A stretch of DNA of 64,000 bases from a virus (lineage: Duplodnaviria; Heunggongvirae; Uroviricota; Caudoviricetes): IMG/VR virus record IMGVR_UViG_2571042690_000019; one strand, 5' to 3'. Positions within the stretch are counted from its first letter, which is position 1. Every line of letters begins with the position of its first letter. Shown here in pieces: positions 1 through 20,983 of the stretch. The position numbers and the translations under genes are program-made. A model generated the notes under the pieces. That model saw only the letters and a list, made by a program, of their open reading frames with translations. It did not search any database and was not told the DNA's origin.

Positions 1-267
1 CTGCCGGTTGAAATCCGCCTGTACGATCGTCTGTTCAGCGTGCCGAACCCAGGTGCTGCGGATGATTTCCTGTCGGTGATTAACCCGGAATCGCTGGTGA
101 TCAAACAGGGTTTTGCTGAACCGTCGCTGAAAGAAGCGGTAGCGGGTAAAGCATTCCAGTTTGAGCGTGAAGGTTATTTCTGCCTCGACAGCCGCCATTC
201 TACGGCGGAAAAACCGGTATTTAACCGCACCGTTGGGCTGCGTGATACCTGGGCGAAGTTAGGTTAA
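1..267 (+). CDS. glnS: glutaminyl-tRNA synthetase, 3' end (partial; gene continues upstream of window)
   Basis: In-frame translation from base 1 reads [32 protein letters not shown]...[18 protein letters not shown]-stop, matching the enterobacterial GlnS C-terminus from memory. The listed ORF start at 40 is only an internal Met. Confidence 0.8.
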
Positions 268-292
268 TAGGTATTTCGCCACATAAAAAAGT

Positions 293-318
293 AAACGCCG
301 CTACTGCGGCGTTTTTTA
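293..318 (+). terminator. rho-independent terminator after glnS
   Basis: GC hairpin aacgccgc-tact-gcggcgtt followed by a T6 run; the convergent methyltransferase gene stops inside the T tract. Confidence 0.6.
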
Positions 319-2610
319 CTTCATTATTGCAATTATATCGTTAGCAACTACACGTTTTGACGCCTTGCAGGACACCGACCGTCTGGCTGCCATATGATGT
401 ACTTTAAACCCGTTTCCTTCATATAGTTCACGGATGTTTGGCGCACCACTATTTGTTATCACTACCTTAGCGCCGCGCTGGTGGGCTTCCACCAATAGAG
501 ATACCAGCCGTTTCTGTTCGTCGAAACGGAAGCTATTTCCTGAATAACTGGTAAACCCTTCTGTATCCGGCAGCGGTTCATACGGCGGATCGCAAAAAAT
601 CACATCGCCTTCACCAGCCGCCTCGATGACGCCAGCAAAGTCACCTGATACAAAGGACGTGTTTTTGAGTACGTCATCAGCCAAAAATGCCTCCATCTCT
701 GCATGTGGGAAGTAGGGCGCTTTGTATTTGCCATACCCCACGTTGAACTCGCCATTTTGGTTGTACCGCGTTACGCCATTAAAACAGTGCCGATTAAGGT
801 ACAAAAAGGCGGCAGCATGATGTAGCTGGTCATACTCTCCTCTGTTAAATGCCTCACGCACTTCGAGGTAAGCGTCAGCGTTGTTGTAATTTTGGAAAAA
901 ACTATATGACAGCGTGACGAGCGAATGTCCTTCTCGCTGCAATGTCTGATAGAAGTTAATCAGGTCACCGTTAATATCATTAAGCAGGTTGTGGCGAAAT
1001 CCTGCATTCGTAAATACAGAACCGCCACCAACGAACGGTTCTATTAACCGCTTGCCGTGTGGTAGATGCTCAAGCACTGTAGGCAACTCTGAGAATTTAC
1101 CGCCTACCCATTTGAAGATCGGACGCTCATATTCATCCGGAGTCCGGAGTTTTCTTGTGTAGGTAATGGTATTTATTTTTTTTGGCTGTTTAGCTTCCAC
1201 AGTCGCAAGAATGCGACACCCAATCCATTGCATAACAGGAACTGCCATGCTGTTGCCAATCGCTTTGTAACGCGGCCCGTCAGCAGCGAGCATCGCGGCC
1301 TCTTCTTCGCTTAAATCTGGATAGTGATTGCGAAGGTATGCCAGTTCATCTGAGGAAATTGTTTTACGCTTTTCCGTAGGGATCAACGTATGCCCATCAG
1401 GAAAACCTTGCAGCCTTTCACATTCGACAGGGGTAAGACGGCGGACAGCTACTTCTGCGTTTCTTACTTCATAGCAAACGGCTGTTGGATTTTGAGCCAT
1501 TAGAGATGGTGAAGTATTCTTAGTTGCAGCATGTTGTGTACCGCTCATACGCTCAGGAAAAGCTAATGTAACAAGATGCTCATGGCTTTCTTGCTCACGC
1601 GCCCGCAATGTACCATGCCCCTCTGACCAAAAACCTGCTCCTGTGCTGCTAAAAACGGCAAGGTCAGTGGCATCTTTAAAGTCTCTTGCCTTTACTGTCG
1701 ATGCGGTTTCATCGTCAATATATTCCCCAAATGCCGCCATCCTGAAAGCGTTTACGGCTTTCGTCGATTTCATACCGGGGGGCATGTCAGCGTGTAGGCA
1801 TGGATTTAGGCTTTCGCCACTGATTGCAGCGCCATTTGCAATAATGGCGGAAGCGATTTCCTTCTTTTTTCGGCTCGGCGCAATATTCCGGCGCACGCCT
1901 TCGAACTCAAAAAGTATCGTTGCGGGATCGAGGTCTGTTCGAGCACTTGCGACAACAAACACGCGTCGGCGTCGTTGCGCCACTCCGAAGTATTGGGCAT
2001 CAAGGATTCTCCAGGCCACTTTTCGCTGCGGTCCATAAATACAACCACACTGCGGCCACTTTGGAGCATGGCAACTGGTTTTGACATCCCACCGCCAGAA
2101 CGCGTTACTTTTTCGCGATTCAGGTCGAGCACCTGGTTCGAATGGCGCATCTTCTCCAGCCAATCCGGCAAGGAAACATCCGAAGGCGTTATCTGCCGAT
2201 GACAAGACTCCTGGGACATTTTCCCAGACGATAACGGCTGGTTTGAGAAATGACTCAGCCCGTTTGTCGTCAATTGCATTTGCAAGCTCCACATACTTTA
2301 AAGTTAGCGCGCCACGCTCATCATCAAGCCCACCACGTAATCCAGCGATACTGAATGCCTGACAAGGTGTTCCCCCGACGAGCACATCAGGGGATTCGAT
2401 TTCCCCAGCCAGGACTTTTTTGGCAAGTTTTGTCATATCGCCAAGGTTGGCGACATGGGGCCAGCGGTGCGCAAGAACGGCAGATGGAAAAGGCTCGATT
2501 TCAGCAAACCACGCCGGACGCATACCCAACGGTTCCCAGGCAATGCTCGCTGCTTCAATTCCACTGCAAACTGAACCATATCTAAGGTTAACGTTCTGCT
2601 TCACCACCAA
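316..2610 (-). CDS. dmt: fused DNA methyltransferase: N-terminal C5-cytosine MTase domain and C-terminal Dam-like N6-adenine MTase domain
   Basis: N-terminal half has m5C motifs ([26 protein letters not shown]); C-terminal half has Dam motifs ([18 protein letters not shown]). P1 encodes a fused Dam/Dcm-type methylase (dmt), from memory. Confidence 0.7.
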
Positions 2611-3493
2611 CGGCCTCCACTAGCGAAGTGAACATCGCGGATAATTCAGCAGTAAACAGGATAAAGTCAGCGTCAAATCGTTGCGCAACATCCTCTCGAT
2701 CAATATCGTCGTTCTGGTCGTACAATTCGTCGCTGAACGACAAAGCCTTGATACTCATATCGTCATTCAGTCTGAAAAATGCACGGTCTTGCCAGTTAAC
2801 CGCAACTGTGGTTGCAACCTTACCAGCTTCTATATGACTCATGATCTCGTCGGATAGCAGGTCCACTTTTTTGCAGCGGACCGCGCCGCCATCATCAAGC
2901 AATGCTTTTAAGGTCGCTTCCTCACCGGCACGGAAACCGTTCGGGAAGCCATTTTTAATCCAGCCAGTGATGGTCAGTTCTAATGGGTCTTTCGGAGAGA
3001 AGGGGACAACGGGCAAGCTGCCAAGCGATTTCCGTAACAAAGCCAGCTGATCCTCTGCTTTTTTAGCACTGCTGGCCTCGACAAAAACCAGATGATTGCT
3101 TCGGTCTATCAGGATTTTAGCTACTGATTTTCTCGTGAAAGCGCGAGGAAGAAGAGAGTGAAGCACTTCATCCTTCAGCGAATCTTTTTCGGTCTTCTTC
3201 AGCTTTCTGTCTTGCTCTTCTTCAAGTTTCAGGATTTTTTTCTGTAACTCTTCTTTGAGTACTTGAGAAGGTAGGATTTTTTCCTCTCGTTTATGCTGCA
3301 TCAGAAGAAAACCCTGGTATTCATGGGTGAGGTTGTCGCCAAGAACGGGGGTCCAACCAGCTTTAGCCATATCCTGAGAACCGCATGGGGTAAACACAAA
3401 CTTGCTAAGGGCTGCATTTACTTCTGCAGTATCCCAGCTAACTTCGCGTGAAAGACGATAGATGAAGATATTTTTGAAAGCGACTGATCTCAT
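2588..3493 (-). CDS. rdgC: recombination-associated protein RdgC homolog
   Basis: 301 aa, alignable by eye along its length to E. coli RdgC ([73 protein letters not shown]...GGEAER). Confidence 0.8.
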
Positions 3494-3503
3494 GTCTCAC
3501 CAT

Positions 3504-3540
3504 TTGTGTTAGAAAATACATATTAATTATCTAACACAAA
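3504..3540. promoter_or_regulatory. inverted pair of C1-operator-like half sites upstream of rdgC-dmt
   Basis: tttgtgttagaaaata...ttatctaacacaaa: perfect inverted repeat containing the TTCTAACA core recurring across the window. Confidence 0.45.
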
Positions 3541-3552
3541 TGGGTGCATTTT

Positions 3553-4206
3553 CTATCCTTTCTTGAAATCGAAGTTGCCAGCAGTGGCCTGAAAGGTTCC
3601 CCCAGCCTTGAAAGCTATGTCCCCGTTAGCGGTGACAGCTATATTTTCCCCATTAACATTGATGTTGTTGGCTGATTTGACGTTAACACTCCCTCCTGCA
3701 TTCACGATTACATCAGCCGGACCAATGATATATATCTGCCCGGACTCATTCATGCCAATCCTTGAGCCTGCTGCCGTATTGGCAATTTCATAGCCGCCAC
3801 CAGCAGTTCGTACTTCAAGAATATTGTTGCGGTGAATAACGAAGTCTTTCGTTGCTGAGATTTGGGGGCGGGGAGGTGCTCCATCTACTTCCGGCGGCGT
3901 CCAGCCGTTGCCTTTGCCAGATGCTTCTGGTGCAACGTTTGGAATTCCTCCCGGTGCATCCTGAGCGGCACCAACTATCATTGGGCGTCTGGTGTCTATT
4001 CGACCGTTAACATCTAAATAAGGAAACTCTACCCAGACCAGGTCACCTTTGACTGTAGGTACAAAAGCGTTCCCGATGGGTAACTGGTATTCCGCCCAGG
4101 GTAGATCGTCATCAGGAACGCCATTCCAGTCAGGTAAAACACGGACTTGAGCACGCATAAGCCCTGCCGGGTGCACAGTTCCAACAATTTGCGCTCTACG
4201 CTTCAT
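3553..4206 (-). CDS. putative baseplate central spike / gpV-gp45-like protein
   Basis: 217 aa; N-terminal OB-like region (GDLVWVEFPYLDVNGR) then Gly/Asn-rich repetitive C-terminus typical of spike beta-helices. Family assignment is a by-eye guess. Confidence 0.35.
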   Translation of the reverse strand: MKRRAQIVGTVHPAGLMRAQVRVLPDWNGVPDDDLPWAEYQLPIGNAFVPTVKGDLVWVEFPYLDVNGRIDTRRPMIVGAAQDAPGGIPNVAPEASGKGNGWTPPEVDGAPPRPQISATKDFVIHRNNILEVRTAGGGYEIANTAAGSRIGMNESGQIYIIGPADVIVNAGGSVNVKSANNINVNGENIAVTANGDIAFKAGGTFQATAGNFDFKKG

Positions 4207-5183
4207 TTGTTAGGCACTCCCAATATCATTCGTGTTGTGTAGCCTACGCGGTCCTCAAAGTGCGCAACATTTTTTACTATCAGCTTACGGGGCATTGATT
4301 CATCAATGCGGTTTTCCTGGTCATAGCGGTATACGATAATCTCTATTACCATCCCCGGTTTTATATCAGGATTGCCTGCGACTTCTATATCCATTTTGGG
4401 GACGAGAGACAGCTGCATATTGCGAAGAGTTTCCATATCAGAGTCGGATATATAACGTACTGGGAGTGAGCTATCGCCATATTCGACGTAGCCATCGGTC
4501 ATGGAATACCCAACAAAACGATATTGATTCTTTGCTGTTGTCGCATGTTCCTGTTGGAGTAGGCGCATTTTGGACAAAGTGTATTCTGCTTTAGGGTTAT
4601 TCCCCTCGTAGGTAAATGATGGCGTTTGCTTCATCAGATCAGCCAGGGTGTAAAAGTTAAATTCCCCCCGGCATACCCAACATAATGCACCTTTGTCTCG
4701 CGCTATCTCCGAAAGCATTTTTGACGGTTTGTCACCGGCATTCAGATGATATGTAACTGCGCGTTTTAGCACGCTGCTGGTAATTTTAAGCTTGCCGGAA
4801 TATGCCTTGAATATAGCGTCTGGTGTTTTGTTGGTATGTAAATTTGTGCGCGGGGAGGGGATCTTAAACCTGCGCACGTCTTCACTGACAGCAATAACGG
4901 TAACAACATCACCAGCCAGCATTGCAGACGTAACAAAGAAATCTGTTTTAAAAGTGCCTGCATTACCGTTTGGATCGCCCATTTCAGCCACCAGCGATGC
5001 ACCGTATTTGGCTTTCCAGTCATCAATTACGGTGCCGGTAGCGTCATGAATTTCCAGTTTTAGCAAAGGGGCTTTGAGGCTGGTTTTTTCTACATATACT
5101 GCGGTAAAAATCCAGTCTCGTGGCACTTTGTTATCGTTAATGAGCACTGACTGTAGAAAATATTGTTGTAACTCCTGGGCCAC
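4203..5183 (-). CDS. hypothetical protein (same operon as spike-like gene)
   Basis: 326-aa ORF; stop overlaps downstream start (ATGA-type coupling). Confidence 0.5.
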   Translation of the reverse strand: MAQELQQYFLQSVLINDNKVPRDWIFTAVYVEKTSLKAPLLKLEIHDATGTVIDDWKAKYGASLVAEMGDPNGNAGTFKTDFFVTSAMLAGDVVTVIAVSEDVRRFKIPSPRTNLHTNKTPDAIFKAYSGKLKITSSVLKRAVTYHLNAGDKPSKMLSEIARDKGALCWVCRGEFNFYTLADLMKQTPSFTYEGNNPKAEYTLSKMRLLQQEHATTAKNQYRFVGYSMTDGYVEYGDSSLPVRYISDSDMETLRNMQLSLVPKMDIEVAGNPDIKPGMVIEIIVYRYDQENRIDESMPRKLIVKNVAHFEDRVGYTTRMILGVPNK

Positions 5184-5186
5184 TTA

Positions 5187-5954
5187 TCACCCCATAGATA
5201 TCGAGGTTTCGGTAATAATACGTTTTGCGTCCAACTCCCATGCTGTGATCACGTCTGCAATCACACTTATCGGCGCTTGTGTGGCATAAATACGCTCTTC
5301 TCCAATTGGTGCTGAAACATCCGTAAAGCCGACTTCTTTGGCATCCTGTATCGAGCAAATCAGCGGGACCGGAACACGAACAAGGTGAGTGGTTGCTTCA
5401 AATTGTGTACCTGTCATCAGGCGAAGCCGTGCGCCCAGCGAATTACACATCAGACTCATGGTCGCTTTATCAGTTGCCATTAACGTAACGTCATACGTCA
5501 GAATGGCCTGGGTGTATTCCAGTTCTGCTAAAGGCATTCCGGTATCCGGTTCGCAAAAACTGGCTACTTTTTTGCGGTCAATCTGCTGATCATCGTTGAT
5601 ATAATTGATATCCATAGTGCGTGAGATATTGACCAGGGGGAGAGCATCCCGGTTAATGTTCTGGTTTTCAGGTTTTCTCCCTTGCCCGGCATTTGCGCGA
5701 CGAACTGCTTTAAGAAACTCGATCGCATTGTCGAAACGGGCCACATAGACACGCTCTGCTGGTGGACGATTCAAGAATGACGCAAAGCGTTTTTCTTCCG
5801 GCGCGGGGGCCACCAGTAAGATATCAGAAAAAATGTTGCTGATTAGCGTCGCAAACGCGTTATCCACGTTTTCAAAGCCCGTGGTCTGGAATTTTCCTGT
5901 GCGTGAGGTTTGCCATTCACCTGTTCGCGCCAGGAGGGTTTTATTTGAAGTCAT
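5187..5954 (-). CDS. hypothetical protein
   Basis: 255-aa ORF tightly packed in the same minus-strand operon. Confidence 0.5.
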   Translation of the reverse strand: MTSNKTLLARTGEWQTSRTGKFQTTGFENVDNAFATLISNIFSDILLVAPAPEEKRFASFLNRPPAERVYVARFDNAIEFLKAVRRANAGQGRKPENQNINRDALPLVNISRTMDINYINDDQQIDRKKVASFCEPDTGMPLAELEYTQAILTYDVTLMATDKATMSLMCNSLGARLRLMTGTQFEATTHLVRVPVPLICSIQDAKEVGFTDVSAPIGEERIYATQAPISVIADVITAWELDAKRIITETSISMG

Positions 5955-6754
5955 TCGATCACTCCGTTTTGAGTCGTATCAAAATTCCTGGCTGGTATGC
6001 AGTAGTAAAGCGAACCAACATGCTGTGTGCCGTAGCTAAAAATACGGTGCACGTACCACCAGCGGCGGGCTACGCCGTTTACCATCTCTTCATTCCATTC
6101 AAGAATTGAGCCGACGGGGACGTTATTTGCTGCAATACGCAGAATCAGAACATCATCGGTTAAGCCATCCTGCTCACCGTCTGCGTCAATCGCATGGAAA
6201 GAGTCACGCCCGTCCGGGTTATCCAGCACATAAACGATTTCAGGTTCCTGGTAAGTCAGTTCGCGTTGGTTGTTATCCAGTTCAGTGAATGACTCTTCTC
6301 CTGTTTCGTCGCTGACTACCCCATATGTGCCAACATCTGGTCGATATAAGAGAGCCTGAAACGCGTCTGGGCTGGATTCAATAATCAGCATCCAGTCTGC
6401 GCGGATTTGGTCGTTAAAGGCTTTATGCCCGTTATAGCGTGCTTTTAACTGTGGAGTCGGTTCTCTGCCAGCCAGGGAAGATGGAAGTATGGCTATATCT
6501 GATTCGCCAGCATCCGGAGTAAGGCCACCGTTGCTATCAGCAAAATTATCATGGCTATCAGCTTTGGCGGCGGGTTGCTCTTCCAGAATGCTGAATGAAT
6601 CCGAACCGGTATTGCCATGTTCCGGCGCGCCTCCTGCATTCGCTTCAATCGGCGCTGGCGTTTCTCTCTGCGTGCTGTCATGTTCTGACTCCTTACTTGC
6701 CAGGTTTGCATCGTCAGCAAACCATTCGTCAAAACGGCCCATAAGCATCCTCAA
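5951..6754 (-). CDS. hypothetical protein with acidic low-complexity N-terminus
   Basis: 267-aa ORF, first gene of the 6754-to-3553 operon; stop overlaps next start. Confidence 0.5.
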   Translation of the reverse strand: MRMLMGRFDEWFADDANLASKESEHDSTQRETPAPIEANAGGAPEHGNTGSDSFSILEEQPAAKADSHDNFADSNGGLTPDAGESDIAILPSSLAGREPTPQLKARYNGHKAFNDQIRADWMLIIESSPDAFQALLYRPDVGTYGVVSDETGEESFTELDNNQRELTYQEPEIVYVLDNPDGRDSFHAIDADGEQDGLTDDVLILRIAANNVPVGSILEWNEEMVNGVARRWWYVHRIFSYGTQHVGSLYYCIPARNFDTTQNGVIE

Positions 6755-6904
6755 AGGTCGATCTGTCAGGTATCGAAAGGAAGATTTTCGGGAGATTGTG
6801 ATTTTGGATGAAGGAGGGGGAATTCATAAAATGCACTTGCGCACAGTGCAACGGTGCGCTATAGTTATGGCATTCGGTAATCATCACGGAGGATCAAATG
6901 ACTA

Positions 6905-7207
6905 ATGACCAAAAAAATTAACATAAAGGATTTCAGGGATGCGTGGCTTGATGATTTTTTTGAATTTTCAACACCACATAGAAAGATACCTCCTGATATT
7001 CATATGACATTGTCACGGAAGTTGGACATTATCAATGCCGCAACTACCTGTAAGGATTTAAGATCACCACCAGGTAATCGGTATGAGGAACTGTCAGGGA
7101 AGCTAAATGGCTATTCATCAGTAAGGGTGAATAAGCAATATAGGTTAATTTTTAAGTGGGTTAACGGAAAGGCCGAGGACTTGTATCTCGACCCTCACAA
7201 ATACTAA
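6905..7207 (+). CDS. higB: type II toxin HigB (RelE/ParE superfamily)
   Basis: 100 aa; toxin-first arrangement; C-terminal RLIFKWVNGKAEDLYLD resembles the HigB killer-protein family. Confidence 0.7.
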   Translation: MTKKINIKDFRDAWLDDFFEFSTPHRKIPPDIHMTLSRKLDIINAATTCKDLRSPPGNRYEELSGKLNGYSSVRVNKQYRLIFKWVNGKAEDLYLDPHKY

Positions 7208-7277
7208 AACAGATACCCGGTTACGGACCGGGTTCTGACCAGAGTCCACTTAATACGCACGCTAGTAAGGGCAAAAA

Positions 7278-7616
7278 ATGAAACAGGCAACCAGAAAACC
7301 GACGACCGTAGGTGATATCCTGCTGTACGAATACCTGGAGCCGTTAGAGCTGAAGATCAACGAGTTAGCAGAAATACTTCATGTTCATCGTAACACCGTA
7401 AGCGCTCTTGTTAATAACAATCGTAAGCTAACGATGGATATGGCATATCGCCTGGCAAAAGCATTCGATACTTCTGTAGATTTTTGGATTAATCTTCAGA
7501 CCGCAGTAGATCTGTGGGAAGTCGAAAATGATATGCGCGTCCAGGAAGAGTTAAGTCGTATCAATACTGCTGAAAAATTTATTTCTCAGCGGAACCTGAA
7601 TAAAAAAGCAGCCTGA
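7278..7616 (+). CDS. higA: HigA antitoxin (XRE-family HTH)
   Basis: 112 aa with HTH (INELAEILHVHRNTVSALVNNNRKLTMDMAYRLAKAF), immediately downstream of higB. Confidence 0.7.
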   Translation: MKQATRKPTTVGDILLYEYLEPLELKINELAEILHVHRNTVSALVNNNRKLTMDMAYRLAKAFDTSVDFWINLQTAVDLWEVENDMRVQEELSRINTAEKFISQRNLNKKAA

Positions 7617-7672
7617 TATAGTAAAACACATACAAAAAGCCCACTTAGCAAGTGGGCTTTCCTTTGTAATTA

Positions 7673-7873
7673 ATGAACATTAAACCTATCCGTACAGAAC
7701 AAGATTATGAGGCCGCACTGCGTGCGGTCGAACCGATGTTCGATAACGAACCGGAAATGAATACTCCGGAAGGTGATTTCTTTGAGGTTATGAGTCTTCT
7801 CATTGAGGAGTACGAGAAGAAACATTACCCAATTCAACCACCATCACCTGTTGAATCTTTTAACTATCCATAA
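7673..7873 (+). CDS. orphan antitoxin-like N-terminal domain (YgjM/HigA-type), no HTH
   Basis: 66 aa IRTEQDYEAALRAVEPMFDNEPE...LIEEYEKKHYPI resembles the N-terminal domain of YgjM-type HigA but ends before any HTH. Confidence 0.4.
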   Translation: MNIKPIRTEQDYEAALRAVEPMFDNEPEMNTPEGDFFEVMSLLIEEYEKKHYPIQPPSPVESFNYP

Positions 7874-7894
7874 TAAAAGTAATCAGGATAAGCT

Positions 7895-8623
7895 ATGATG
7901 TCAGAAAAAGTTAAAGATAATCCGTCTATAAATGAAACAGAACTAAAATCATTTTCTGAAATAATAAAAGATAAAATATTTAACAAGGTTTTTGCATATG
8001 TTGTCATTTCTTTTCTAATTTTTAACTGGAAGGATATTTTAATTATATTAAAGTCAAAGGACGACATCCTATATACATTATCTATTGTTTCTGTTGGTGG
8101 TAATGTCCCGTTCATTGATAATTGGATTGTATCCCCGTGGGTTTATCACGTTGTAATCCCATTTATTTATGGAGTATTTGCATCTGTGTTAGCTCCTGTT
8201 CTCACACTGAAGATATCTAAGCTAACAAGTAAATTATACACTGAAATAAGATATTTAGATGAAGTTGCTGATTATGATAAAAGAATAGAATTGCAAAGAA
8301 AGAAAACAAAGTTAAATCAAGCAACCAATGACGCTAAATATTCAAAACAAATCTTAGATGAAAATGAAAATAAACTTAATGACTTGGTTACGAAACAGCG
8401 AGAAATTTGTGGCGCGATAAAACTATTGCATACTGATGTTGGCAGTATTATTGAACTATATAAAAATAAGGGGGTTAGCATTGAATCTCCGCAAGATTTA
8501 TGTGATTTTATAGTCGCTATAAAAAGCACATCATTCTATAATGATGACAAGCATTTTAATAAATTGGTGTCTGATATTTCCAGTTTGTTTGATAATACTG
8601 GAATTGATCTTTCAAAAAAATGA
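7895..8623 (+). CDS. AT-rich membrane protein with C-terminal coiled coil (unknown function)
   Basis: 242 aa; three hydrophobic segments then a Lys/Asn-rich coiled-coil tail; local GC far below the rest of the window. Confidence 0.55.
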   Translation: MMSEKVKDNPSINETELKSFSEIIKDKIFNKVFAYVVISFLIFNWKDILIILKSKDDILYTLSIVSVGGNVPFIDNWIVSPWVYHVVIPFIYGVFASVLAPVLTLKISKLTSKLYTEIRYLDEVADYDKRIELQRKKTKLNQATNDAKYSKQILDENENKLNDLVTKQREICGAIKLLHTDVGSIIELYKNKGVSIESPQDLCDFIVAIKSTSFYNDDKHFNKLVSDISSLFDNTGIDLSKK

Positions 8624-8656
8624 AAGCCCAGCATAAACTACTAGGCTATGTGTGGT

Positions 8657-9850
8657 TTATGCTTTTTTTACATACTCCATGAACATTTTTTCAGCTTGTG
8701 CTGGTGGTGTTCCAGCCATGACAAGCGCATCAATGAACGCCTGCTTCTTCAGTGCGAACTGATCGGCAAGGCGTTGCTGAAGCTCCTTGTTTTTCTGTTT
8801 CTCACGTTGCAAGGCCGCTTCTTTTGCTGCCGCCCGTTTTTTCTGTGCATCTGACAACTTTCTGGCCTTGGTCAATTGGTCACGTAGTTTGTCGATCTTG
8901 CCGTTGTCCTTTGCCAGTTTTGTACTTAAAGCTGCCTGGCGCTTCTGATAGAGCCTCCATTCGCGTTTGGCGGCTTCAACGTTCGTTTTACTGCTACGAT
9001 TGCGATTAAACTCCTTCTCGTCTTCTTTTGAGAAGTGTTTGGTTGTACGGCGGCGATCGTCACCAAATGCAATTTGCGTTGCAGCCTTTTGTAGCGCACG
9101 AGCAATACTCATTTGCCAACTGGCGGACTGTAACCGCGTCATTGAGTGGATCACGTGTTTACAGGCGACGCCTTGCAGCTTCGGGTTGCGAACTTTTGGA
9201 TAGGCGTATTCTTTTGGCGGTGCCAGGGCAAAGTTACCCGCAGTGGCGATGTAACGATACCAGTATTGATGACGACCACAGTCACAATCGAAAGACACTC
9301 GCCCGGCGCACAGTGATTTAGTGATTTTGAGAGCTGATTTATCGTCTTCTGCGATGTCATCAACCATCTGATCCCATTCTTCAAAGCGTATCCGGACGAT
9401 ATGGTGCTGGTGGACGGATATATCCGATGCTTCTACGCGGATATTAATCACATTGTGGCGAAGAGATACGGGTGTAGCTCTTTTGATACCAGATCCGTCA
9501 TCCACGGCGTTATTTGCACGCTTAATATCGATTGCCTGGCTGGATGCCACCAGCTGGGCGTATGTGATGCCAGCCGTCTTGCTGTCATATTTTTCGCGCG
9601 TTTTACTCCGTAGCTTTTCGAAACCTTTCAGGTCGTCTCGCGTGAAGAACGTGCCGCCTTTTTTCTTCCCTAACTTGAGAATATCTTCGGCGGATTTGTT
9701 CCTCAGTCTACCTGGCGTCAGCGTCCGGTGAGCTTGTCGGCGCTTACGGGTTTGTTCTTTCCTGATAAGGTCGAATAAACGCGTGAAGTCCTTAGAGGAC
9801 AGGCCGTCAGTGATATAGCGCCCGTCCTGGTTTTTCAGGAAATCAGGCAT
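8657..9850 (-). CDS. hypothetical protein with SWIM-like zinc finger and basic coiled-coil C-terminus
   Basis: 397 aa; CDCGRHQYWYRY...GVACKHVIH fits CxC-Xn-CxH; C-terminal third is K/R/Q/A-rich. Confidence 0.5.
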   Translation of the reverse strand: MPDFLKNQDGRYITDGLSSKDFTRLFDLIRKEQTRKRRQAHRTLTPGRLRNKSAEDILKLGKKKGGTFFTRDDLKGFEKLRSKTREKYDSKTAGITYAQLVASSQAIDIKRANNAVDDGSGIKRATPVSLRHNVINIRVEASDISVHQHHIVRIRFEEWDQMVDDIAEDDKSALKITKSLCAGRVSFDCDCGRHQYWYRYIATAGNFALAPPKEYAYPKVRNPKLQGVACKHVIHSMTRLQSASWQMSIARALQKAATQIAFGDDRRRTTKHFSKEDEKEFNRNRSSKTNVEAAKREWRLYQKRQAALSTKLAKDNGKIDKLRDQLTKARKLSDAQKKRAAAKEAALQREKQKNKELQQRLADQFALKKQAFIDALVMAGTPPAQAEKMFMEYVKKA

Positions 9851-10172
9851 TTTCTATCTCCGGTTCCGCGCTTGCGTAATCACGGATCTTGTTCCTCAGC
9901 CATGCCACATCAGGAAGAGTTAACGTGGTCCCTGCGGGCATTTCTTCAATTTCTGACTCATGGCCCACCAGCACCCGGAATACCCAGCGCAAATCTGCAT
10001 TGCCATACGCCCTGTAGGCTGCAAGGTCTGAACGATATACTTCATCAATCTTTATCGTGTACTGGAAATTATCAGAGTGATACTCCGATACCCGCTTAAT
10101 CATTTCCTGGTGAAACAGCGCACGAAAAATATCGTCTTCAATGTACCTATCGTCGAGTCTGCTATAGCCCAT
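9843..10172 (-). CDS. hypothetical protein
   Basis: 109-aa ORF overlapping the start of the upstream gene by 8 bp. Confidence 0.4.
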   Translation of the reverse strand: MGYSRLDDRYIEDDIFRALFHQEMIKRVSEYHSDNFQYTIKIDEVYRSDLAAYRAYGNADLRWVFRVLVGHESEIEEMPAGTTLTLPDVAWLRNKIRDYASAEPEIENA

Positions 10173-10365
10173 AACAAAGCCTCTCAGTCATAACCTGGGG
10201 GAAACTGTATGCAGGGTGTGAAATGCGAGAAACAGACAGGCCACCAGTTCAGGGGGATGTGGTTCATAAATCCCCTCACTGGTGACAAGTGACTTTCATT
10301 AATCTTTATGCGGGGGCCAGCTTCATTTGCTGGCATTAGATTAAAAATCAAACGGAGTAAATGAC

Positions 10366-10500
10366 ATGGATGTTATCTTCGAATTATTAATGCTAATTGA
10401 TCTGTTTATGAACGCTTCATTGACCACTCAAATACTCGCGTCAATATTTTTGTTACTCTTCTACCTGGTATTGAGGGAGTTAACAAAGCTACTAATGTGA
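10366..10500 (+). CDS. small hydrophobic peptide (44 aa), possible membrane toxin-like
   Basis: ATG preceded by GGAG at about -10; MDVIFELLMLIDLFMNASLTTQILASIFLLLFYLVLRELTKLLM; below the ORF-track cutoff. Confidence 0.3.
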   Translation: MDVIFELLMLIDLFMNASLTTQILASIFLLLFYLVLRELTKLLM

Positions 10501-11196
10501 TCAAAGTATCACGGTATCTTCATCAACTTCTTTCCCAGTCAGCGACTTTGGCTGGGAGGTGCCTGCTTTAACTTTTTCATGCCCAATAATGGACAGGAAC
10601 GAAGCGAGTATGCCTGTTTTTTGCTCTTTCTCGACTGTACCGGTCATCTGCTCTACGTAATCCGCACTGGCAACATTGTGGTATACGGTCGCGTAGCAAC
10701 ACAGGATCATCAAAATATGTTCCGGCCTGATATCCTGCCAGTTCACCCGGTAAACTTCTTCTCCGTTACCGTTGTATTCGGTGTCAACGATGGAGTCGGG
10801 AATTTCGAAAGCACCTTTATTGTTTTGCGGCAGGGATAATAGCTTCTGGAGTTTTAGCTCTCTGTATCTTTCCATCCCTACGATGATCGCAGCTCTGCCG
10901 TCGGCATGACGTGTCTTGAGTGTTACCTGGCTTGCTCCGGTGCCAGCGGAGATCGTTGGCGTAATTTCGTCTACCAGCACCTTAAATTTGCTTTTCCGCA
11001 GGGCTGCTATAGCTGGAGGAATCTTTTGCTTTTGTTCCAATGCTGACGCGGGAAGGGGTTTTACTTCGTTAATCACGAGAGCACCGTCTTTCAGTATTGC
11101 AGTGAGCATTTGCGGTTTGCTGGTGGTCAGGCTGAATATTGCTATCTTCTCCATTGTCCTTCCTCCACGGATGACGGATACAAAAAAAGGCCGCAC
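10501..11196 (-). CDS. hypothetical protein
   Basis: 231-aa ORF, no recognisable motif. Confidence 0.5.
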   Translation of the reverse strand: MRPFFVSVIRGGRTMEKIAIFSLTTSKPQMLTAILKDGALVINEVKPLPASALEQKQKIPPAIAALRKSKFKVLVDEITPTISAGTGASQVTLKTRHADGRAAIIVGMERYRELKLQKLLSLPQNNKGAFEIPDSIVDTEYNGNGEEVYRVNWQDIRPEHILMILCCYATVYHNVASADYVEQMTGTVEKEQKTGILASFLSIIGHEKVKAGTSQPKSLTGKEVDEDTVIL

Positions 11197-11389
11197 ATGG
11201 CGGCCTGCTTTGGCGTTATGACTCCCTACCGCGCTTCGGCTGAAAGTTAATCGTCAAAAGAACCTTCAACGGGAGCCGTTAGCGCGATGGATTATGTGCA
11301 GTTTGTGATTTCCAGAATAGTGTCAACCACTTTTTGAGGATTTTATTATTTGACCGAAACTTGGCCTAAATCATGTTGATGTAGTTGAT

Positions 11390-11407
11390 TGTTTTTATAA
11401 CATAAAA
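11390..11407. promoter_or_regulatory. weak C1-operator-like variant
   Basis: gtttttataacataaaac, one mismatch from the TTTTCTAACATAAAA form; upstream of the secreted-protein gene pair. Confidence 0.25.
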
Positions 11408-11422
11408 CTTCATTTTGTTTAC

Positions 11423-12046
11423 ATGAAGGATGGTGTAGTGAAGTTAAGGGTTTTAGGGGCCGCGCTCGCGGCTATGTTGGGATGCGTATCTGCTAATACT
11501 GCCAATGCAACTGCGTTACCTGCACAATTCAGGGCAGGGCAGCAGGTTATGAATAACGCTGTTGGGGATCATTCACAAGCGGCCATTATGGACTTTTGCA
11601 AGAGGGAGGGCATTCCATTACGGCCTGTTGGAACTCAGTTTATTGGTAAAACTGACTTTTGCGTTTTTGCATATACAGCATATCTGACGGACAAAGCTAT
11701 AACAAAAACAGGTTATTCAACCAAAGATACTCTTTCCAGATTAAGTCAGGGATGGCAGCAATTCGAAGTGTATCGCCAGCAAGGATTAGGTGAGTTATTG
11801 CAACCACTTTTTATGCTTGCGTTGGTGCCAGAGGGGCAGCAATTTTTGGTTAAAAAGGGAATGCTTCGCCAAAGTGATATTGCCGGGTTCGATAGCATGA
11901 TGGCTTATGAGCGCAAACTAACCGAGCAGCGAAATAAAAAACCATCTGCTTCATGTGTGCAAAGTAAAACAGCAGAATACAGTGCAGTAGCCGGGCCTTT
12001 AGCCAAACAAATGGCAGAGCAATGGTGTAAAAAATACGGGCAATAA
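11423..12046 (+). CDS. secreted/periplasmic hypothetical protein
   Basis: 207 aa with N-terminal signal-peptide-like segment (LGAALAAMLGCVSANTANA). Confidence 0.5.
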   Translation: MKDGVVKLRVLGAALAAMLGCVSANTANATALPAQFRAGQQVMNNAVGDHSQAAIMDFCKREGIPLRPVGTQFIGKTDFCVFAYTAYLTDKAITKTGYSTKDTLSRLSQGWQQFEVYRQQGLGELLQPLFMLALVPEGQQFLVKKGMLRQSDIAGFDSMMAYERKLTEQRNKKPSASCVQSKTAEYSAVAGPLAKQMAEQWCKKYGQ

Positions 12047-12826: not shown

Positions 12827-14005
12827 TTAACTAACAATCCAGTCCATAGCAATAACATCCTCTGGAGCTAAATCAATAGCATGGATTTTCCCGTCACGGA
12901 TGGTGCGCCAGTGCTTTCGTGATCCACCTTCGGGCCACACCCATATACCTTCAGGCCAGGAAGAACGACGACACACTGTTGCGTATCCAGTCCTGATCTT
13001 CTCTCTGACGGTATGTAGTGACAGATTATCCTTTGGGCTTTCAGGCACAGGATGGTGGATTGCCTGAAACATCCCCATCTTTGGATGATACCAGCGTTTA
13101 TTGCGTGGTTCTGCCTCCGACATCACCTGCTTAAAGGCTTTCCGGAAGGGGGCACGTGATCCACCTTCGGGCCACACCCATATACCTTCAGGCCAGGAAG
13201 AACGACGACACACTGTTGCGTATCCAGTCCTGATCTTCTCTCTGACGGTATGTAGTGACAGATTATCCTTTGGGCTTTCAGGCACAGGATGGTGGATTGC
13301 CTGAAACATCCCCATCTTTGGATGATACCAGCGTTTATTGCGTGGTTCTGCCTCCGACATCACCTGCTTAAAGGCTTTCCGGAAGGGGGCCAGGGCCACA
13401 ATGGAACGTCGCGCAAGCAAACCGTCGGGAGTTAAAAACTCATGCGTATCTGTGGGGATCCGGTAAGCGTTGACCAGGTTGCGGCATTTGGCTTCAGTCA
13501 GGCCGCATTTCGCCGCTAACTGGCGATAGCCAATGTAGCCTTCCGGAATATTGCCTTTCTTTATTTGCTCGACGGTTTCAGCGACTTTGGTCACTTGTGC
13601 CGATACTTCGGCTACCTGGGCATTAACGGCGTTGATCCGGCGTTCATGCTCAAGATGCATTTGCGCCATTTCAGCCAGAATTTCGGCTTTTGATTTTAAC
13701 TGTACCCGGGCATTCTCCAGTTCGCGCCAGCGGTCCACCAGCCGGGCGGTGAATTCGGGAGAGAGCTGCGCGACGACGACAATACTATCGCGCTTGCCTT
13801 GCTCGCCTTCGAAGAAATAGGCTTTTGTGTATTTATTAGGGCTAAGTGATTGATTATTCTCAACTGTAGCCAATGGCGTATGTTGGATAACTCCTTTAGC
13901 AACAAGTCTTTCGATGCTGCGTTTAACATCAGAGTGACGACTTCCCACCAGTTCCGCGATCTCAATGCTGGTCATTGTCGCTTTTTGAGAGATGGACAGA
14001 TTCAT
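12827..14005 (-). CDS. Rha/Ant-family antirepressor (immI-like module 1) with internal duplication and C-terminal fusion
   Basis: N-terminal Rha-type HTH (MTSIEIAELVGSRHSDVKRSIERL); paralog of 53204..53956; a 79-aa segment occurs twice in tandem; C-terminus matches the separate small ORF 53007..53207 of module 2. Confidence 0.65.
   Translation of the reverse strand: MNLSISQKATMTSIEIAELVGSRHSDVKRSIERLVAKGVIQHTPLATVENNQSLSPNKYTKAYFFEGEQGKRDSIVVVAQLSPEFTARLVDRWRELENARVQLKSKAEILAEMAQMHLEHERRINAVNAQVAEVSAQVTKVAETVEQIKKGNIPEGYIGYRQLAAKCGLTEAKCRNLVNAYRIPTDTHEFLTPDGLLARRSIVALAPFRKAFKQVMSEAEPRNKRWYHPKMGMFQAIHHPVPESPKDNLSLHTVREKIRTGYATVCRRSSWPEGIWVWPEGGSRAPFRKAFKQVMSEAEPRNKRWYHPKMGMFQAIHHPVPESPKDNLSLHTVREKIRTGYATVCRRSSWPEGIWVWPEGGSRKHWRTIRDGKIHAIDLAPEDVIAMDWIVS
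12918..13391. repeat. perfect tandem direct duplication, 2 x 237 bp, inside the antirepressor gene
   Basis: Sequence from about 12918 to 13154 repeats at 13155 to 13391 (gtgatccaccttcgggccacaccc...cttaaaggctttccggaaggggg); 237 is a multiple of 3, so in frame. Confidence 0.9.
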
Positions 14006-14220
14006 CAGTGCACCTCCACGCAGTTCATTGGCAGATTCCAGTAATTGAGGATCTCCATCGCATCAAGAGTGAAGCGAGCAGCAAAAATGCAGGGTTCTTC
14101 GGGAAGGTATGAGCGCGCCTCTGCTTCGGTAGCAGCCATTACGCAGATATAAAGGTGTTTTTGGCAGGAATAGAAACGCCAGATAAATTCAGAATGAGTT
14201 GGGGTAGGGATAGTAGCCAT
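14005..14220 (-). CDS. Icd-like small protein (immI module 1)
   Basis: 71 aa directly upstream of the antirepressor; paralog of 53911..54135 (shared EFIWRF..LQKH...AATE.EARS); size and position match P1 icd from memory. Confidence 0.45.
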   Translation of the reverse strand: MATIPTPTHSEFIWRFYSCQKHLYICVMAATEAEARSYLPEEPCIFAARFTLDAMEILNYWNLPMNCVEVH

Positions 14221-14224
14221 ATTG

Positions 14225-14400
14225 GCAGCCTCCTTTGACTAAGTTAAGGAGCTACCGCGTGAGGTTCCAATCTCAATGGCGGTAGCACTGACTGGGTTGG
14301 AACTACCGGCGTCAAAGGGAACCGGCCTGCCTTTCGGCAGCCCAGCCAGCACTACCATTGATCTCTGAGCTAAACGCTAAGTATGGCTGTGCGATGGCAT
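14225..14400 (-). ncRNA. candidate c4-like antisense RNA / structured leader (immI module 1)
   Basis: Non-coding stretch with nested hairpins (gctaccgc...gcggtagc; ggcctgcc-tttc-ggcagcc) and GGTTCCAA / TTGGAAC complementary heptamers. Coordinates approximate. Confidence 0.25.
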
Positions 14401-14404
14401 GACA

Positions 14405-14427
14405 CAAAAAAAGACGCGTTCGGCGTC
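14405..14427 (-). terminator. rho-independent terminator (minus strand)
   Basis: Minus-strand RNA gacgccgaacgcgtc followed by U7. Confidence 0.5.
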
Positions 14428-14469
14428 TGTGTCGCCTTTGACATTATCCGGGGTTCCAATCCCGGCACC

Positions 14470-14486
14470 CGTTTTTCTAAGGTGCC
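14470..14486. promoter_or_regulatory. C1-operator-like variant upstream of immI module 1
   Basis: ccgtttttctaaggtgc, TTTTCTAAGG variant of the recurring core. Confidence 0.3.
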
Positions 14487-15020
14487 GTAGAAATATACCC
14501 CACGATAATGCCATGGCGCAACAGTCAGTATTTTATGCTTTGGCGGATTTCTTCCGGGCTTGCTTGCAGGCGTAGGCCATTGCTTTAGCTTTCACTTCAT
14601 CCAGCTTCCCGGTGATCACTTCTTTTCCGAGAGTGACAAACCAGTCATAGCAACCGCCAGTAATGTTCTTGATTTGAAAGTTGAGGTAGCGAACAGTCAT
14701 TTTGACACCCCCAGCGCGAGTAAAGAATGCAGATTATCGCGTGAGTGGTGGACGACGAGTGATGGGAAAAGACTGTAGTTGTTCATAGTGTAGTGACTCC
14801 TTGCTTTCGGAGCCGCCATTGACTGTTCCACGGTCTGGTGGCGGCGCAATAAAGGCTGGAACACCGTGAGTCAACGGGGGCTTTTCAGCCACCTATATTG
14901 CACCGCCATAGGTATAGCGGCGGCAATAATACGAAAAACTAAACAGTTTGTCTCAAAAAGTTGACCGGTGTGCCAATCGGTAGTGAATGTACATCGGGGA
15001 AATTTACAATTCAACTTAAA

Positions 15021-15033
15021 ATGTTAGAAAACT
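15021..15033. promoter_or_regulatory. C1-operator-like site
   Basis: atgttagaaaact (reverse complement AGTTTTCTAACAT) at the 3' end of the ref-like gene. Confidence 0.4.
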
Positions 15034-15610
15034 AATTTATCAATTCAATCGCCATCTGATACAACGCCATTTCATCGGCATTGTGCCGTATGAAATCTGC
15101 TTTTCCGCCTATTTTTCCATCAGCATGAACAGGGACCAGCCAGGGATATTGTTCTCGGACCTCGGCTGGCGCTGCGTACTGGTGGTGCCATTTACACAAA
15201 GGGAGGACATATTTATGCGCGTTCTCTGCCGTTCTCCCGAAGATATGGTGCAGGGATACTACTGGGCTATGTTGCCCGTGAATATGGCAGGCAATGCAGG
15301 GGAGAGTACCGATAGCGGTCTGTATCCGGCGTTCATCGGCTGTGAGTGATCTGCCCTTCAGGCCGCGTGACGTGCGTGTTTTTTTGGGCGGAGCGGATAC
15401 AGCTTTATCTTTTCTCCGCTGTTCATATTGCTTTGCTTTTTCAATTTTCTTTTGCCGATATTCAGGCGATGCGGCTTTTTCTCTCGCTCGCTGCTGCTGG
15501 CGTTGAGCTTGTTGAAGGCGCTTTGCCCTTTGTTCCTCTCGCCAGGCCGGGTCAGCCAATTTTTGCATGGCTTTTTGTCTCTGTTTCTCCCAATAACTCT
15601 GTTTCTGCAT
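15032..15610 (-). CDS. ref: Ref-like HNH endonuclease (RecA-dependent nuclease)
   Basis: 192 aa; highly basic Q/R/K-rich disordered N-terminus then Cys/His core (LPCIACHIHG...SLHHIFGRT...LPLCKWHH), as recalled for P1 Ref. Confidence 0.55.
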   Translation of the reverse strand: MQKQSYWEKQRQKAMQKLADPAWREEQRAKRLQQAQRQQQRAREKAASPEYRQKKIEKAKQYEQRRKDKAVSAPPKKTRTSRGLKGRSLTADERRIQTAIGTLPCIACHIHGQHSPVVSLHHIFGRTAENAHKYVLPLCKWHHQYAAPAEVREQYPWLVPVHADGKIGGKADFIRHNADEMALYQMAIELIN

Positions 15611-15677
15611 GATGGCAGTCTCTTACTTTTCAACGATTTTTCTATGATTGATCAAAATGGTTAGATATTCAAAATTG

Positions 15678-15695
15678 ATTTTCTAACATAAAACA
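15678..15695. promoter_or_regulatory. C1-operator-like site in divergent promoter region (ref / 15856 operon)
   Basis: gattttctaacataaaac. Confidence 0.45.
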
Positions 15696-15855
15696 TTAAT
15701 ATCATTCCTGATAACTGTTTGGAGGACATGATGCTTATAGCTTTAAGTGCGATCCACCAGCCATCTGTGAATGAGATTGGCCTGTTCTATGTGTTGGTTT
15801 TCGGGGCGTTGGCGCTACTTGAGCTTGGTATTGAGCTTTTCGCAGTGCTTATGTT

Positions 15856-20886: not shown

Positions 20887-20907
20887 TCAAATCATTTACG
20901 CACTCAA

Positions 20908-20948: not shown

Positions 20949-20983
20949 TTACCGCTCGGAACAAAACAGAGTCGGTATACATT

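Follow-up and report, generated by a model that had tools for sequence, protein, structure and literature searches.

The first bases of the window, by which the whole 64,000-nt stretch of DNA analysed here is meant, set the end of glnS, the gene for glutaminyl-tRNA synthetase (GlnRS), against a convergent dmt-like DNA methyltransferase gene, and the question raised by this locus is whether a host chromosome ends and a phage begins there. The preliminary description had offered two answers, namely a P1-like element integrated in the chromosome, starting about 50 bp past the stop codon of the host glnS with its junction at 268–316, or a phage-plasmid that has captured host DNA including glnS. 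The comparisons bear out the second: the element is very probably a D6-like phage-plasmid with a self-contained glnS 'moron' copied from an Escherichia lineage, and the active GlnRS specified by this unit would be carried as cargo. The features at the glnS end of the window are collected in Table 1.

Table 1. Features at the glnS end of the window, with the basis of each assignment.
Feature	Position	Strand	Basis or remark
Plasmid-borne glnS 3' end, codons 466–553 and stop, anticodon-binding domain	1..267	+	ORF, Pfam, alignment
glnS 3' UTR without REP elements, stop to terminator	268..292	+	Comparison with chromosomes
Predicted glnS intrinsic terminator hairpin, AAACGCCGC-TACT-GCGGCGTTT	293..314	both strands	Folding, conservation
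dmt-like DNA methyltransferase, 762 aa	316..2604	-	Start as annotated in relatives; mechanical ORF to 2610
Right copy of imperfect 12-nt direct repeat, TCATTATTG(A/C)AA	321..332	+	Left copy outside the window
rdgC (P1 hrdC homologue), first backbone gene beyond dmt	2588..3493	-	Upstream context retrieved with the exact protein

The glnS end reported for the start of the window is indeed present: 88 codons and a stop are read in frame from base 1 and end in ...RDTWAKLG*, a profile search matches this tail to the Pfam family tRNA-synt_1c_C2 (PF20974; E=5e-20), and K-12 glnS aligns with bases 1–263 at 95.4% identity (E=2e-120). Homology to the chromosomal E. coli gene stops at 263, and the encoded C-terminus is AKLG* in the window and in the glnS of phage D6, as opposed to AKVGE* in chromosomes. 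Moreover, the tail is identical at 267 of 267 positions to six D6-like plasmid contigs, whereas the sampled chromosomal alleles match it at 254 of 263 positions at most; judged by these identities, it is a plasmid allele of glnS rather than a chromosomal one. Because the window opens inside the gene, at codon 466, the 5' part of glnS and the plasmid genes upstream of it are visible in relatives only.

The junction of glnS with the methyltransferase recurs in 75 of 5,426 complete E. coli genomes, at 76 plasmid places; the best 60 of the junction records are all plasmids (59–216 kb), and the place counts agree for the remainder. Similarly, the ten contigs that encode exactly the RdgC of the window are all 75–94 kb in length and lead through a complete 553-aa glnS into plasmid partition genes, and no contig above 1 Mb with this RdgC was found. 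The D6-type partition module occupies 101 plasmid places and not one chromosomal place in the same 5,426 genomes. A closed plasmid with a complete glnS, the observation by which the preliminary description would have integration refuted, is p702_18_3, a circular E. coli replicon of 95,167 bp, with which all 64 kb of the window are collinear across the origin of that record, at 99.1–99.4% identity outside a mosaic block at 13–27 kb; its glnS layout is the same as in D6, where the gene is orf62, annotated as 'glutaminyl-tRNA synthetase, similar to E. coli GlnS' and located between orf61 and dmt. The far end of the window continues into a plasmid tail-fibre and invertase region, not into host DNA. 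As far as these comparisons reach, window 1–320 is the interior of a D6-like phage-plasmid and not the edge of an element, by which a false lead, a new P1-type integration site at glnS, is removed.

Integration of the element beside or within the host glnS, either site-specific or through homologous recombination over 1.7 kb, would make bases 1–267 host or hybrid sequence, and it is extremely unlikely. The upstream context of the window is unseen, as the window begins inside glnS, and plasmid and chromosomal glnS do recombine, which makes a Campbell-type co-integrate physically possible; against this, no integrated copy was seen among the 5,426 genomes and their chromosomal matches end at 263, the junction in the best 60 records and the partition module are confined to plasmids, and the tail is that of the plasmid contigs. 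An integrase is likewise missing from the junction, with no recombinase within 31 kb and the only tyrosine recombinase 31 kb off, and the plasmid sequence at the opposite end of the window, together with the lack of any RdgC contig above 1 Mb, further speaks against integration.

A chimeric mis-assembly, in which a chromosomal glnS fragment was joined to a phage-plasmid contig, would accord with the start of the window at codon 466 and with the breaking of short-read assemblies in this gene (about 9 of 20 D6-family contigs in IMG/VR end within glnS). Its probability is nevertheless practically nil, since the base-identical junction is found in 75 closed plasmids, phage D6 and many independent contigs, and since the fragment holds plasmid-specific substitutions and the plasmid-specific AKLG* terminus. 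What looks like a host–phage boundary is explained by the start of the window, which is probably a contig end, inside a gene of which the cell has two copies with 96–97% identity. The non-Escherichia glnS genes in two IMG/VR records (L114 and L118) were considered as further phage cargo and set aside; they are closest to the chromosomal glnS of Proteus and Pasteurellaceae and are probably host flanks.

Phage D6 (MF356679 / NC_050154; Gilcrease and Casjens 2018) has the same gene in the same position, with the same junctions, AKLG* terminus and terminator, and matches window 1–12000 with 95.5% identity over 83% of its length; the listed host of D6 is C600. A variable block at 13–28 kb finds its best match among complete E. 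coli genomes and PLSDB at 84% coverage and 96.6% identity. As no record in these collections is identical to the window, the replicon type of the source sequence has to be deduced from relatives, by which the element would be a circular D6-like phage-plasmid of about 90–95 kb and a relative of P1. The window leaves approximately 31 kb uncovered, and to this part belong rep, parM/stbB and orf60/61, which are present in every relative examined.

The label 'P1-like' holds for kinship: the plasmid-prophage lifestyle is shared with P1, as is much of the gene order, including dmt, hrdC/rdgC and the baseplate genes 5, 6, 24 and 7. It gives way to 'D6-like' at the DNA level, where P1 matches window 1–12000 only at nt 1220–2580 (95.7% identity to P1 dmt) and most of the window is without nucleotide similarity to P1; furthermore, P1 has no glnS, and it partitions by ParAB, whereas D6-like elements use an StbA/ParM and ParA-like module. 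Two toxin–antitoxin systems, higBA and phd-doc, and four tRNA genes (Asn, Thr, Ser and Met, none of them tRNA-Gln) are encoded by the element, and the nearest tRNA gene is 39.1 kb from the junction, in agreement with the earlier remark that none marks it. The methyltransferase is a fusion of an N-terminal C5-cytosine methylase (Dcm) with a C-terminal D12-class N6-adenine methylase (Dam), having a P1-type middle part, whereas D6 has two separate genes, orf63 (Dam) and orf64 (Dcm).

The short interval between the two genes contains a hairpin with a 9-bp G+C-rich stem and T-runs on both strands, for which folding energies of -19.8 and -21.3 kcal/mol (z = -3.5 and -3.8) are computed. Its stem, AAACGCCGC...GCGGCGTTTTTT, recurs 20–50 nt after the glnS stop in Salmonella, Citrobacter, Kluyvera, Enterobacter and Pseudescherichia; in E. 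coli and E. ruysiae, the terminator stem is placed 80–215 nt after the stop, beyond inserted REP elements, one or two of which separate stop and terminator in E. coli chromosomes. An assignment of the hairpin to plasmid DNA, suggested by the end of homology to K-12 at 263, was rejected in view of the conservation of the stem across Enterobacteriaceae and the insertion of REP in E. coli. On the strength of that conservation, the hairpin is read as the native enterobacterial glnS terminator. The T-runs on both strands suggest that termination is bidirectional, serving dmt, which converges on glnS, as well as glnS itself, and the dmt stop codon (TAA at 316–318) is itself placed within a T-run, so that, as far as sequence can tell, one hairpin would end both transcripts; the preliminary description was correct in letting the methyltransferase share the glnS terminator. 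A scan of bases 1–3000 against Rfam returned sub-threshold matches only, driven by the terminator.

In the relatives in which the gene is seen in full, a promoter, the 553-codon ORF of glnS and a terminator without REP make up a transcription unit that is complete within about 1.8 kb, with D6 orf60/61, the ParA-like partition module, on one side and dmt, in convergent orientation, on the other. Homology to the chromosome starts about 87–100 bp before the ATG and takes in the native sigma-70 promoter, TTGTCA-N17-GATCAT, in which a Dam GATC site is contained within the -10 hexamer, a promoter conserved with those of chromosomal glnS. Downstream, the captured DNA has its right junction at about 315–327, and the final three dmt codons differ from those in empty-site relatives. 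In two of the latter, pHX138.33gt_1 and pPSS-10_3, orf61 directly faces dmt with a different hairpin in between, and about 26 of the 101 D6-like plasmids of E. coli are without the glnS junction. Morons are a concept defined for lambdoid phages by Hendrix and colleagues. The glnS unit resembles them at the sequence level, being an autonomous promoter–gene–terminator unit between backbone genes that is missing from close, syntenic relatives; it differs in what it encodes, as lambdoid morons bring genes for lysogenic conversion or exclusion and the D6-like unit a near-unchanged housekeeping translation enzyme.

An imperfect direct repeat, with TCATTATTGCAA at 321–332 and its partner TCATTATTGAAA 1,828 bp upstream (seen in relatives), is kept in 13 of 13 plasmids and has an empirical chance of about 0.0015. 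The earlier view that no obvious direct repeat marks the junction is thereby only partly upheld: a 12-bp repeat does exist, and it encloses the glnS unit alone, not the phage. It is the only flanking repeat; att repeats of an integrated prophage would enclose the whole element. The repeat may stem from microhomology or from target duplication; a reconstructed uninterrupted site (left flank, one repeat copy and dmt) was not covered to 80% by any PLSDB record.

By parsimony, and given that P1 is without the gene, glnS was probably gained in the D6 lineage rather than lost from the glnS-less quarter. In the donor comparison, E. ruysiae was the Escherichia among the matches listed, with E. albertii, E. 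fergusonii and E. marmotae outside the comparison; the 3' flank of the plasmid gene has no REP, whereas REP was present in every Escherichia chromosome examined. All 13 full-length plasmid alleles are intact, with HIGH at 41–44 and VMSKR at 268–272, and full-length plasmid GlnRS contains the class I GlnRS domains PF00749, PF03950 and PF20974. Plasmid and E. coli coding sequences are 96–97% identical, and the protein departs from that of K-12 by 3–5 conservative substitutions (>99% identity). With a dN/dS of about 0.02–0.03, the plasmid gene is under strong purifying selection. One further candidate for a divergent allele, the glnS of pSa1423-90k (89% identical), was discarded, as its ORF is in fragments in a sparsely annotated record and sequencing error is the probable cause.

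Differences between D6 and K-12 glnS are distributed unevenly, with 5 in the 3' 600 nt versus 38 in the first 1,050 nt (Fisher p=3e-4); the 3' third of the D6 gene, in which it differs from the window, would have been converted to K-12-like sequence. Two other plasmid alleles have a middle third that is 99% identical to other E. coli chromosomes. By the pattern of these tracts, gene conversion between plasmid and host glnS is shown. Over the 1.7 kb of shared homology, a mobile element demonstrably exchanges sequence by gene conversion with an essential gene of the chromosome, and this homology would let the phage-plasmid recombine recurrently with the chromosomal nagE–glnS–chiP region.

In the preferred reading, the unit would have been copied once from a chromosome of the Escherichia lineage, as both junctions and the 12-bp repeat are common to all copies examined; purifying selection would then keep it intact, and the resident chromosomal glnS would repeatedly patch the plasmid copy by gene conversion. 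Expressed from its own promoter, plasmid glnS would yield an active GlnRS that is almost the same as that of the host, and this second supply, with a dose expected to track plasmid copy number and Dam methylation state, may benefit the element as fitness or maintenance cargo. Citing Plumbridge and Soll 1987, PMC11741368 describes glnS as derepressed in dam mutants. That glnS is a cargo gene of D6-like elements is already published and is in itself an ordinary finding: pYU39_89, a D6-like element of Salmonella Typhimurium ST213, has glnS as a cargo 'moron', tRNAs for Asn, Thr, Ser and Met, higBA and phd-doc (PMC6799933). It encodes the same four tRNAs as the window in a different host genus. 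The same paper describes glnS in all D6-like genomes, in contrast to the E. coli plasmids found here without the junction. What is added are the boundaries of the unit, the 12-bp repeat, purifying selection, gene conversion, the glnS-less quarter and the independent captures; that a phage-plasmid family retains, in near-exact copy, a translation enzyme essential to its host is of modest interest.

Plasmid glnS might alternatively be a retention device like cysS of pBT1, being the main source of the enzyme with the chromosomal copy down-regulated, such that loss of the plasmid is penalised; this is doubtful, if tenable. For pBT1 of Salmonella Typhimurium D23580, experiments established that the plasmid cysS is essential and the chromosomal copy down-regulated (PMC6333337), which is a precedent for a plasmid aminoacyl-tRNA synthetase in such a role, and the same role has been proposed for D6-like glnS (PMC6799933). 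Additionally, glnS adjoins the partition module, and one conjugative Citrobacter plasmid has cysS and glnS together. Both systems put an essential class I aminoacyl-tRNA synthetase gene on a plasmid beside an intact chromosomal copy; however, pBT1, unlike the D6-like elements, is no phage-plasmid, the CysS encoded by it is 89% identical to the host protein as against >99% for plasmid GlnRS, and its roles were shown by experiment, whereas D6 glnS is known here from its sequence and coexists with a retained chromosomal gene. Practically every genome has kept its chromosomal glnS (5,427 chromosomal places in 5,425 genomes), host and plasmid enzymes hardly differ, the element already has higBA and phd-doc, and about a quarter of D6-like plasmids lack glnS, all of which argues against retention; to our knowledge, no plasmid repressor of chromosomal glnS has been described, which counts against it as well.

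It is unlikely that the extra GlnRS serves mainly lytic growth, in which, together with the four tRNA genes, it would raise the charging of Gln-tRNA during amplification, the Dam-sensitive promoter being derepressed on under-methylated new DNA. Such a supply would fit the GATC of the -10 hexamer, kept in 13 of 13 plasmid copies, the derepression of glnS without Dam (PMC11741368), the tRNAs encoded by the element and the presence of the gene in virion-derived D6. On the other hand, the element encodes no tRNA-Gln, and across Enterobacteriaceae the promoter has GATC as its ancestral state, so that special selection is not needed for its presence.

It is very unlikely that glnS is a nearly neutral hitch-hiker whose conservation is only apparent, being maintained by continual conversion from the selected chromosomal copy. 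Conversion tracts are evident and a quarter of D6-like plasmids do without the gene, as such a hitch-hiker would predict; yet the low dN/dS is also seen among plasmid alleles, in plasmid-specific segments, none of the 13 alleles is frameshifted or truncated, and 75 of 101 D6-like plasmids have the junction. The distribution of glnS beyond the D6 family also argues for selection. Units of glnS are found on a 133-kb Enterobacter ludwigii plasmid and on an IncI-type Citrobacter cronae plasmid, and at least two other enterobacterial plasmids have captured the gene independently, each from its own host genus, which suggests that the gene is selected rather than accidental. As three unrelated plasmids have captured glnS units from promoter to terminator, and the D6 copy is under purifying selection, plasmid glnS could even be a response to a specific selective pressure at the level of GlnRS or of the charging of tRNA-Gln, such as a toxin, an inhibitor or a defence system directed at this step, or act as a Dam-gated addiction or dosage device coupled to copy number, a proposal that is quite unlikely.

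The first bases of the window encode the end of a glutaminyl-tRNA synthetase, whose residues match the anticodon-binding domain of class I Glu/Gln tRNA synthetases (PF20974, E=5e-20), and bases 1-263 are 95.4% identical to glnS of E. coli K-12. The hairpin behind this gene (fold z-scores of -3.5 and -3.8) ends in a T-run within which the stop codon of the methyltransferase gene dmt (316-318) falls; 2604 is used as the dmt start, the mechanical ORF reaching 2610. The preliminary description of window 1-320, in which dmt shares the glnS terminator and no tRNA gene marks the junction, is therefore correct as to gene ends, hairpin, and tRNA distance, the closest tRNA gene being 39 kb off. It had also seen no obvious direct repeat, but an imperfect 12-nt repeat flanks the glnS unit (i.e., the promoter-glnS-terminator DNA between orf61 and dmt).

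Features at the glnS-dmt junction
Feature	Position	Strand	Remarks
glnS 3' end, 88 residues	1-267	+	In frame from base 1
Hairpin	293-314		Between glnS and dmt; 9-bp G+C-rich stem, T-runs on both strands
Methyltransferase (dmt), 762 aa	316-2604	-	C5-cytosine methylase N-terminal, D12 N6-adenine methylase C-terminal
Imperfect 12-nt direct repeat, right copy	321-332		TCATTATTG(A/C)AA
Imperfect 12-nt direct repeat, left copy	L001 (comparison locus) 6493-6504		Outside the window

Phage D6, a P1-related phage-plasmid, matches window 1-12000 at 95.5% identity over 83% of the length, and p702_18_3, a closed, circular E. coli plasmid of 95,167 bp, is collinear with the entire 64-kb window at 99.1-99.4% identity, a mosaic block at ~13-27 kb excepted, with the alignment running on through the origin of the plasmid record. 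These two matches assign the element to the D6-like phage-plasmids; the earlier label "P1-like" thus holds for a relative of P1 but not for P1 itself, as P1, P7, RCS47, and SJ46 match window 1-12000 at nt 1220-2580 only, inside the methyltransferase gene. In D6, the methyltransferase region comprises two genes, orf63 (Dam) and orf64 (Dcm), whereas the window carries one 762-aa C5+N6 fusion; between nt 1220 and 2580, this fusion gene shares 95.7% identity with P1 dmt, which points to modular exchange with P1 within a single methyltransferase gene.

Outside this region, the accessory block at 13155-27025 is mosaic relative to p702_18_3, with segments that have been rearranged and replaced (94-97% identity); matches to its lambdoid-type genes (ead/Ea22-like, DUF968, Rha) are also found on thousands of E. 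coli chromosomes. The 191-aa product of window 38120-38695 (minus strand) matches a Tad2-like Thoeris anti-defence domain (PF11195, E=1e-9), and RefSeq labels its homologue in p702_18_3 a Tad2 family protein. A tRNA with anticodon CAT at 39150-39225 (minus strand) is tRNA-Met according to ARAGORN, and its p702_18_3 counterpart is tRNA-Ile in RefSeq, presumably the lysidine-modified Ile2 type. The product of 45501-52337 (minus strand), a protein of 2,278 aa that is conserved in D6-like plasmids, has SNF2/helicase domains and a weak match to an N6-methylase domain.

Two origins had been proposed for the junction, namely chromosomal integration of a P1-like element beside the host glnS, or capture of host DNA including glnS by a phage-plasmid. 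A 401-bp probe (window 100-500) was covered to at least 80% in 75 of 5,426 complete E. coli genomes, at 76 plasmid places; the best 60 records are all plasmid records (59-216 kb), and the 5,427 chromosomal places of the probe in these genomes all end at window 258-263, none crossing the junction. Similarly, 101 complete E. coli genomes have the D6-type ParA-like module, every copy being plasmid-borne and none chromosomal. When the exact RdgC protein of the window was used as a query against public assemblies for upstream context, no contig above 1 Mb was found to carry it, and the carriers among the matches listed (10/10) were contigs of 75-94 kb with the gene order RdgC, 762-aa methylase, 553-aa GlnRS, 95-aa ORF, ParA-like, StbB, and StbA/ParM; one of the ten, 93 kb long and from GCA_900042445, matches window 1-5368 at 100% identity. 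In p702_18_3, a small ORF, a ParA-like ATPase, and parM/stbB precede a complete 1,662-bp glnS, and D6 orf62, between orf61 and dmt, is annotated 'glutaminyl-tRNA synthetase, similar to E. coli GlnS'. Chromosomal integration is rejected because, in the complete E. coli genomes, the junction lies on plasmids and chromosomal matches stop before it, and capture is borne out by the complete glnS in p702_18_3, D6, and the ten listed contigs. The glnS tail of the window is identified as the plasmid allele by its bases (267/267 identical in six plasmid contigs, at most 254/263 against any sampled chromosome), and, although a search of complete E. coli genomes and PLSDB gave no record identical to the window, a plasmid state of the window's own sequence is strongly indicated. 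Its start within glnS (codon 466) is likely an assembly break, as expected of short reads from one cell holding two copies 96-97% identical; about 9 of 20 D6-like IMG/VR contigs terminate inside glnS (loci including L116 and L123-L130).

On the left, chromosomal glnS homology starts ~87-100 bp upstream of the ATG, and the captured DNA contains TTGTCA-N17-GATCAT, a promoter that 13/13 plasmid copies have and that is conserved across Enterobacteriaceae. On the right, E. coli similarity ceases at window 263 (final codons AKLG* versus AKVGE*). An end of the captured DNA at this base is ruled out, as hairpin 293-314 is the conserved glnS terminator, with the same stem as in Salmonella, Citrobacter, Kluyvera, Enterobacter, Atlantibacter, Cedecea, and Pseudescherichia; where one or two REP elements intervene, namely in E. 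coli and E. ruysiae, the terminator is shifted by 80-215 nt. Native promoter and conserved terminator together identify the captured piece, at the sequence level, as a complete ~1.8-kb promoter-to-terminator unit in a REP-less configuration. In the empty-site relatives pHX138.33gt_1 and pPSS-10_3, dmt lies directly opposite orf61 with a different hairpin between them (GCCCCGATCGGGGC; empty-site loci L006 4880-5000 and L007 4840-5000), and the final three dmt codons differ from those of glnS-bearing plasmids (TLK* versus IMK*), a comparison that places the right junction at ~315-327. The two repeat copies flank the glnS unit exactly 1,828 bp apart in 13/13 plasmids examined, and 11/12 matches arose in 0.15% of trials (~0.0015) with random 40-nt window pairs from the plasmid. 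The repeat may have been left behind by the capture, through microhomology or target duplication; a search for an uninterrupted version of the repeat-bearing site found none. Farther upstream of glnS, beyond the window, L001 6370-6450 has GGTGCACC / TTGGTACC-like motifs clustered in inverted and direct orientation downstream of the ParA-like orf60/61 module. They may form the centromere-like site of that module, and the empty-site relatives have similar motifs.

Beyond its observed structure and location, the unit is intact and under selective constraint: all 13 plasmid alleles have 553 codons, HIGH (41-44) and VMSKR (268-272) are present, and the product differs from K-12 GlnRS by 3-5 conservative substitutions (V97I, Q106K, I112V, S478N, D510E) and the C-terminal tail. 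With dN/dS at 0.02-0.03 among plasmid alleles, and in the same range between plasmid and chromosome, a neutral hitch-hiker is improbable. The unit's own promoter would drive its transcription, its hairpin would end both the glnS and the dmt transcripts, and the product would be an active GlnRS adding to the host supply. PMC6799933, with Gilcrease and Casjens (2018) as its source for D6, calls glnS of D6-like genomes a moron or cargo gene and, drawing a parallel with pBT1 cysS, speculates that it serves host fitness or helps to maintain the plasmid. For pBT1, experiments found the plasmid cysS to be needed for normal growth and the chromosomal copy to be down-regulated by the plasmid (PMC6333337). 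Plasmid retention through takeover of an essential gene is a tentative explanation for keeping glnS. The -10 hexamer contains GATC, in agreement with the Dam repression of glnS reported in PMC11741368 (citing Plumbridge and Soll, 1987), and a lytic-phase or Dam-gated supply of GlnRS is slightly less probable than takeover; the remaining probability falls to an unspecified fitness effect. A literature search found no functional study of D6 glnS.

Against six E. coli chromosomal alleles (97.3-98.6% identical among themselves), the plasmid alleles show 96.2-97.7% identity, and against E. ruysiae glnS 94.8-95.8%, the 5' third being most divergent (95-97%); these ranges place the donor in the Escherichia lineage, at or just outside E. 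coli diversity. Compared with K-12, D6 glnS (locus L003, 4604-6265) has 38 differing sites in nt 1-1050 and 5 in nt 1051-1650 (Fisher p=3e-4), whereas p702_18_3 has 35 and 26, without such a contrast; the 3' 600 nt are 99.3% identical to K-12 in D6 and 95.6% in p702_18_3. The listed host of D6 is C600, and its 3' part is consistent with gene conversion from C600. Two further plasmid alleles match other E. coli chromosomes at 99% across their middle third (p=0.005-0.008), and these segment contrasts together indicate recurrent gene conversion between plasmid and chromosomal glnS.

The capture of glnS by a phage-plasmid is already in the literature, to which the exact unit boundaries, REP-less terminator, flanking repeat, and gene conversion are small additions, along with incomplete presence in the family and independent captures elsewhere. 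The full glnS unit with flanks occurs in 113 PLSDB plasmids; the 117 records with any match come from Escherichia (90), Salmonella (16), Klebsiella (3), Shigella (2), and further genera. Almost without exception, the plasmids are 87-98 kb long and non-mobilizable. Among D6-like plasmids in complete E. coli genomes, the junction is found in 75/101 and about a quarter are without it, so the published statement that 'all D6-like genomes' carry glnS needs qualifying. Two unrelated plasmids each carry a glnS unit from the genus of their host, one that starts ~70 bp upstream of the ATG and takes in the terminator: a 133-kb Enterobacter ludwigii plasmid (L091, 7074-8741; 94% identical to Enterobacter chromosomal glnS) and the IncI-type Citrobacter cronae plasmid p.S175-1.4 (L090, 3331-7155; 89% identical to Citrobacter), which also has cysS aboard. 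Both plasmids captured aminoacyl-tRNA synthetase genes independently.
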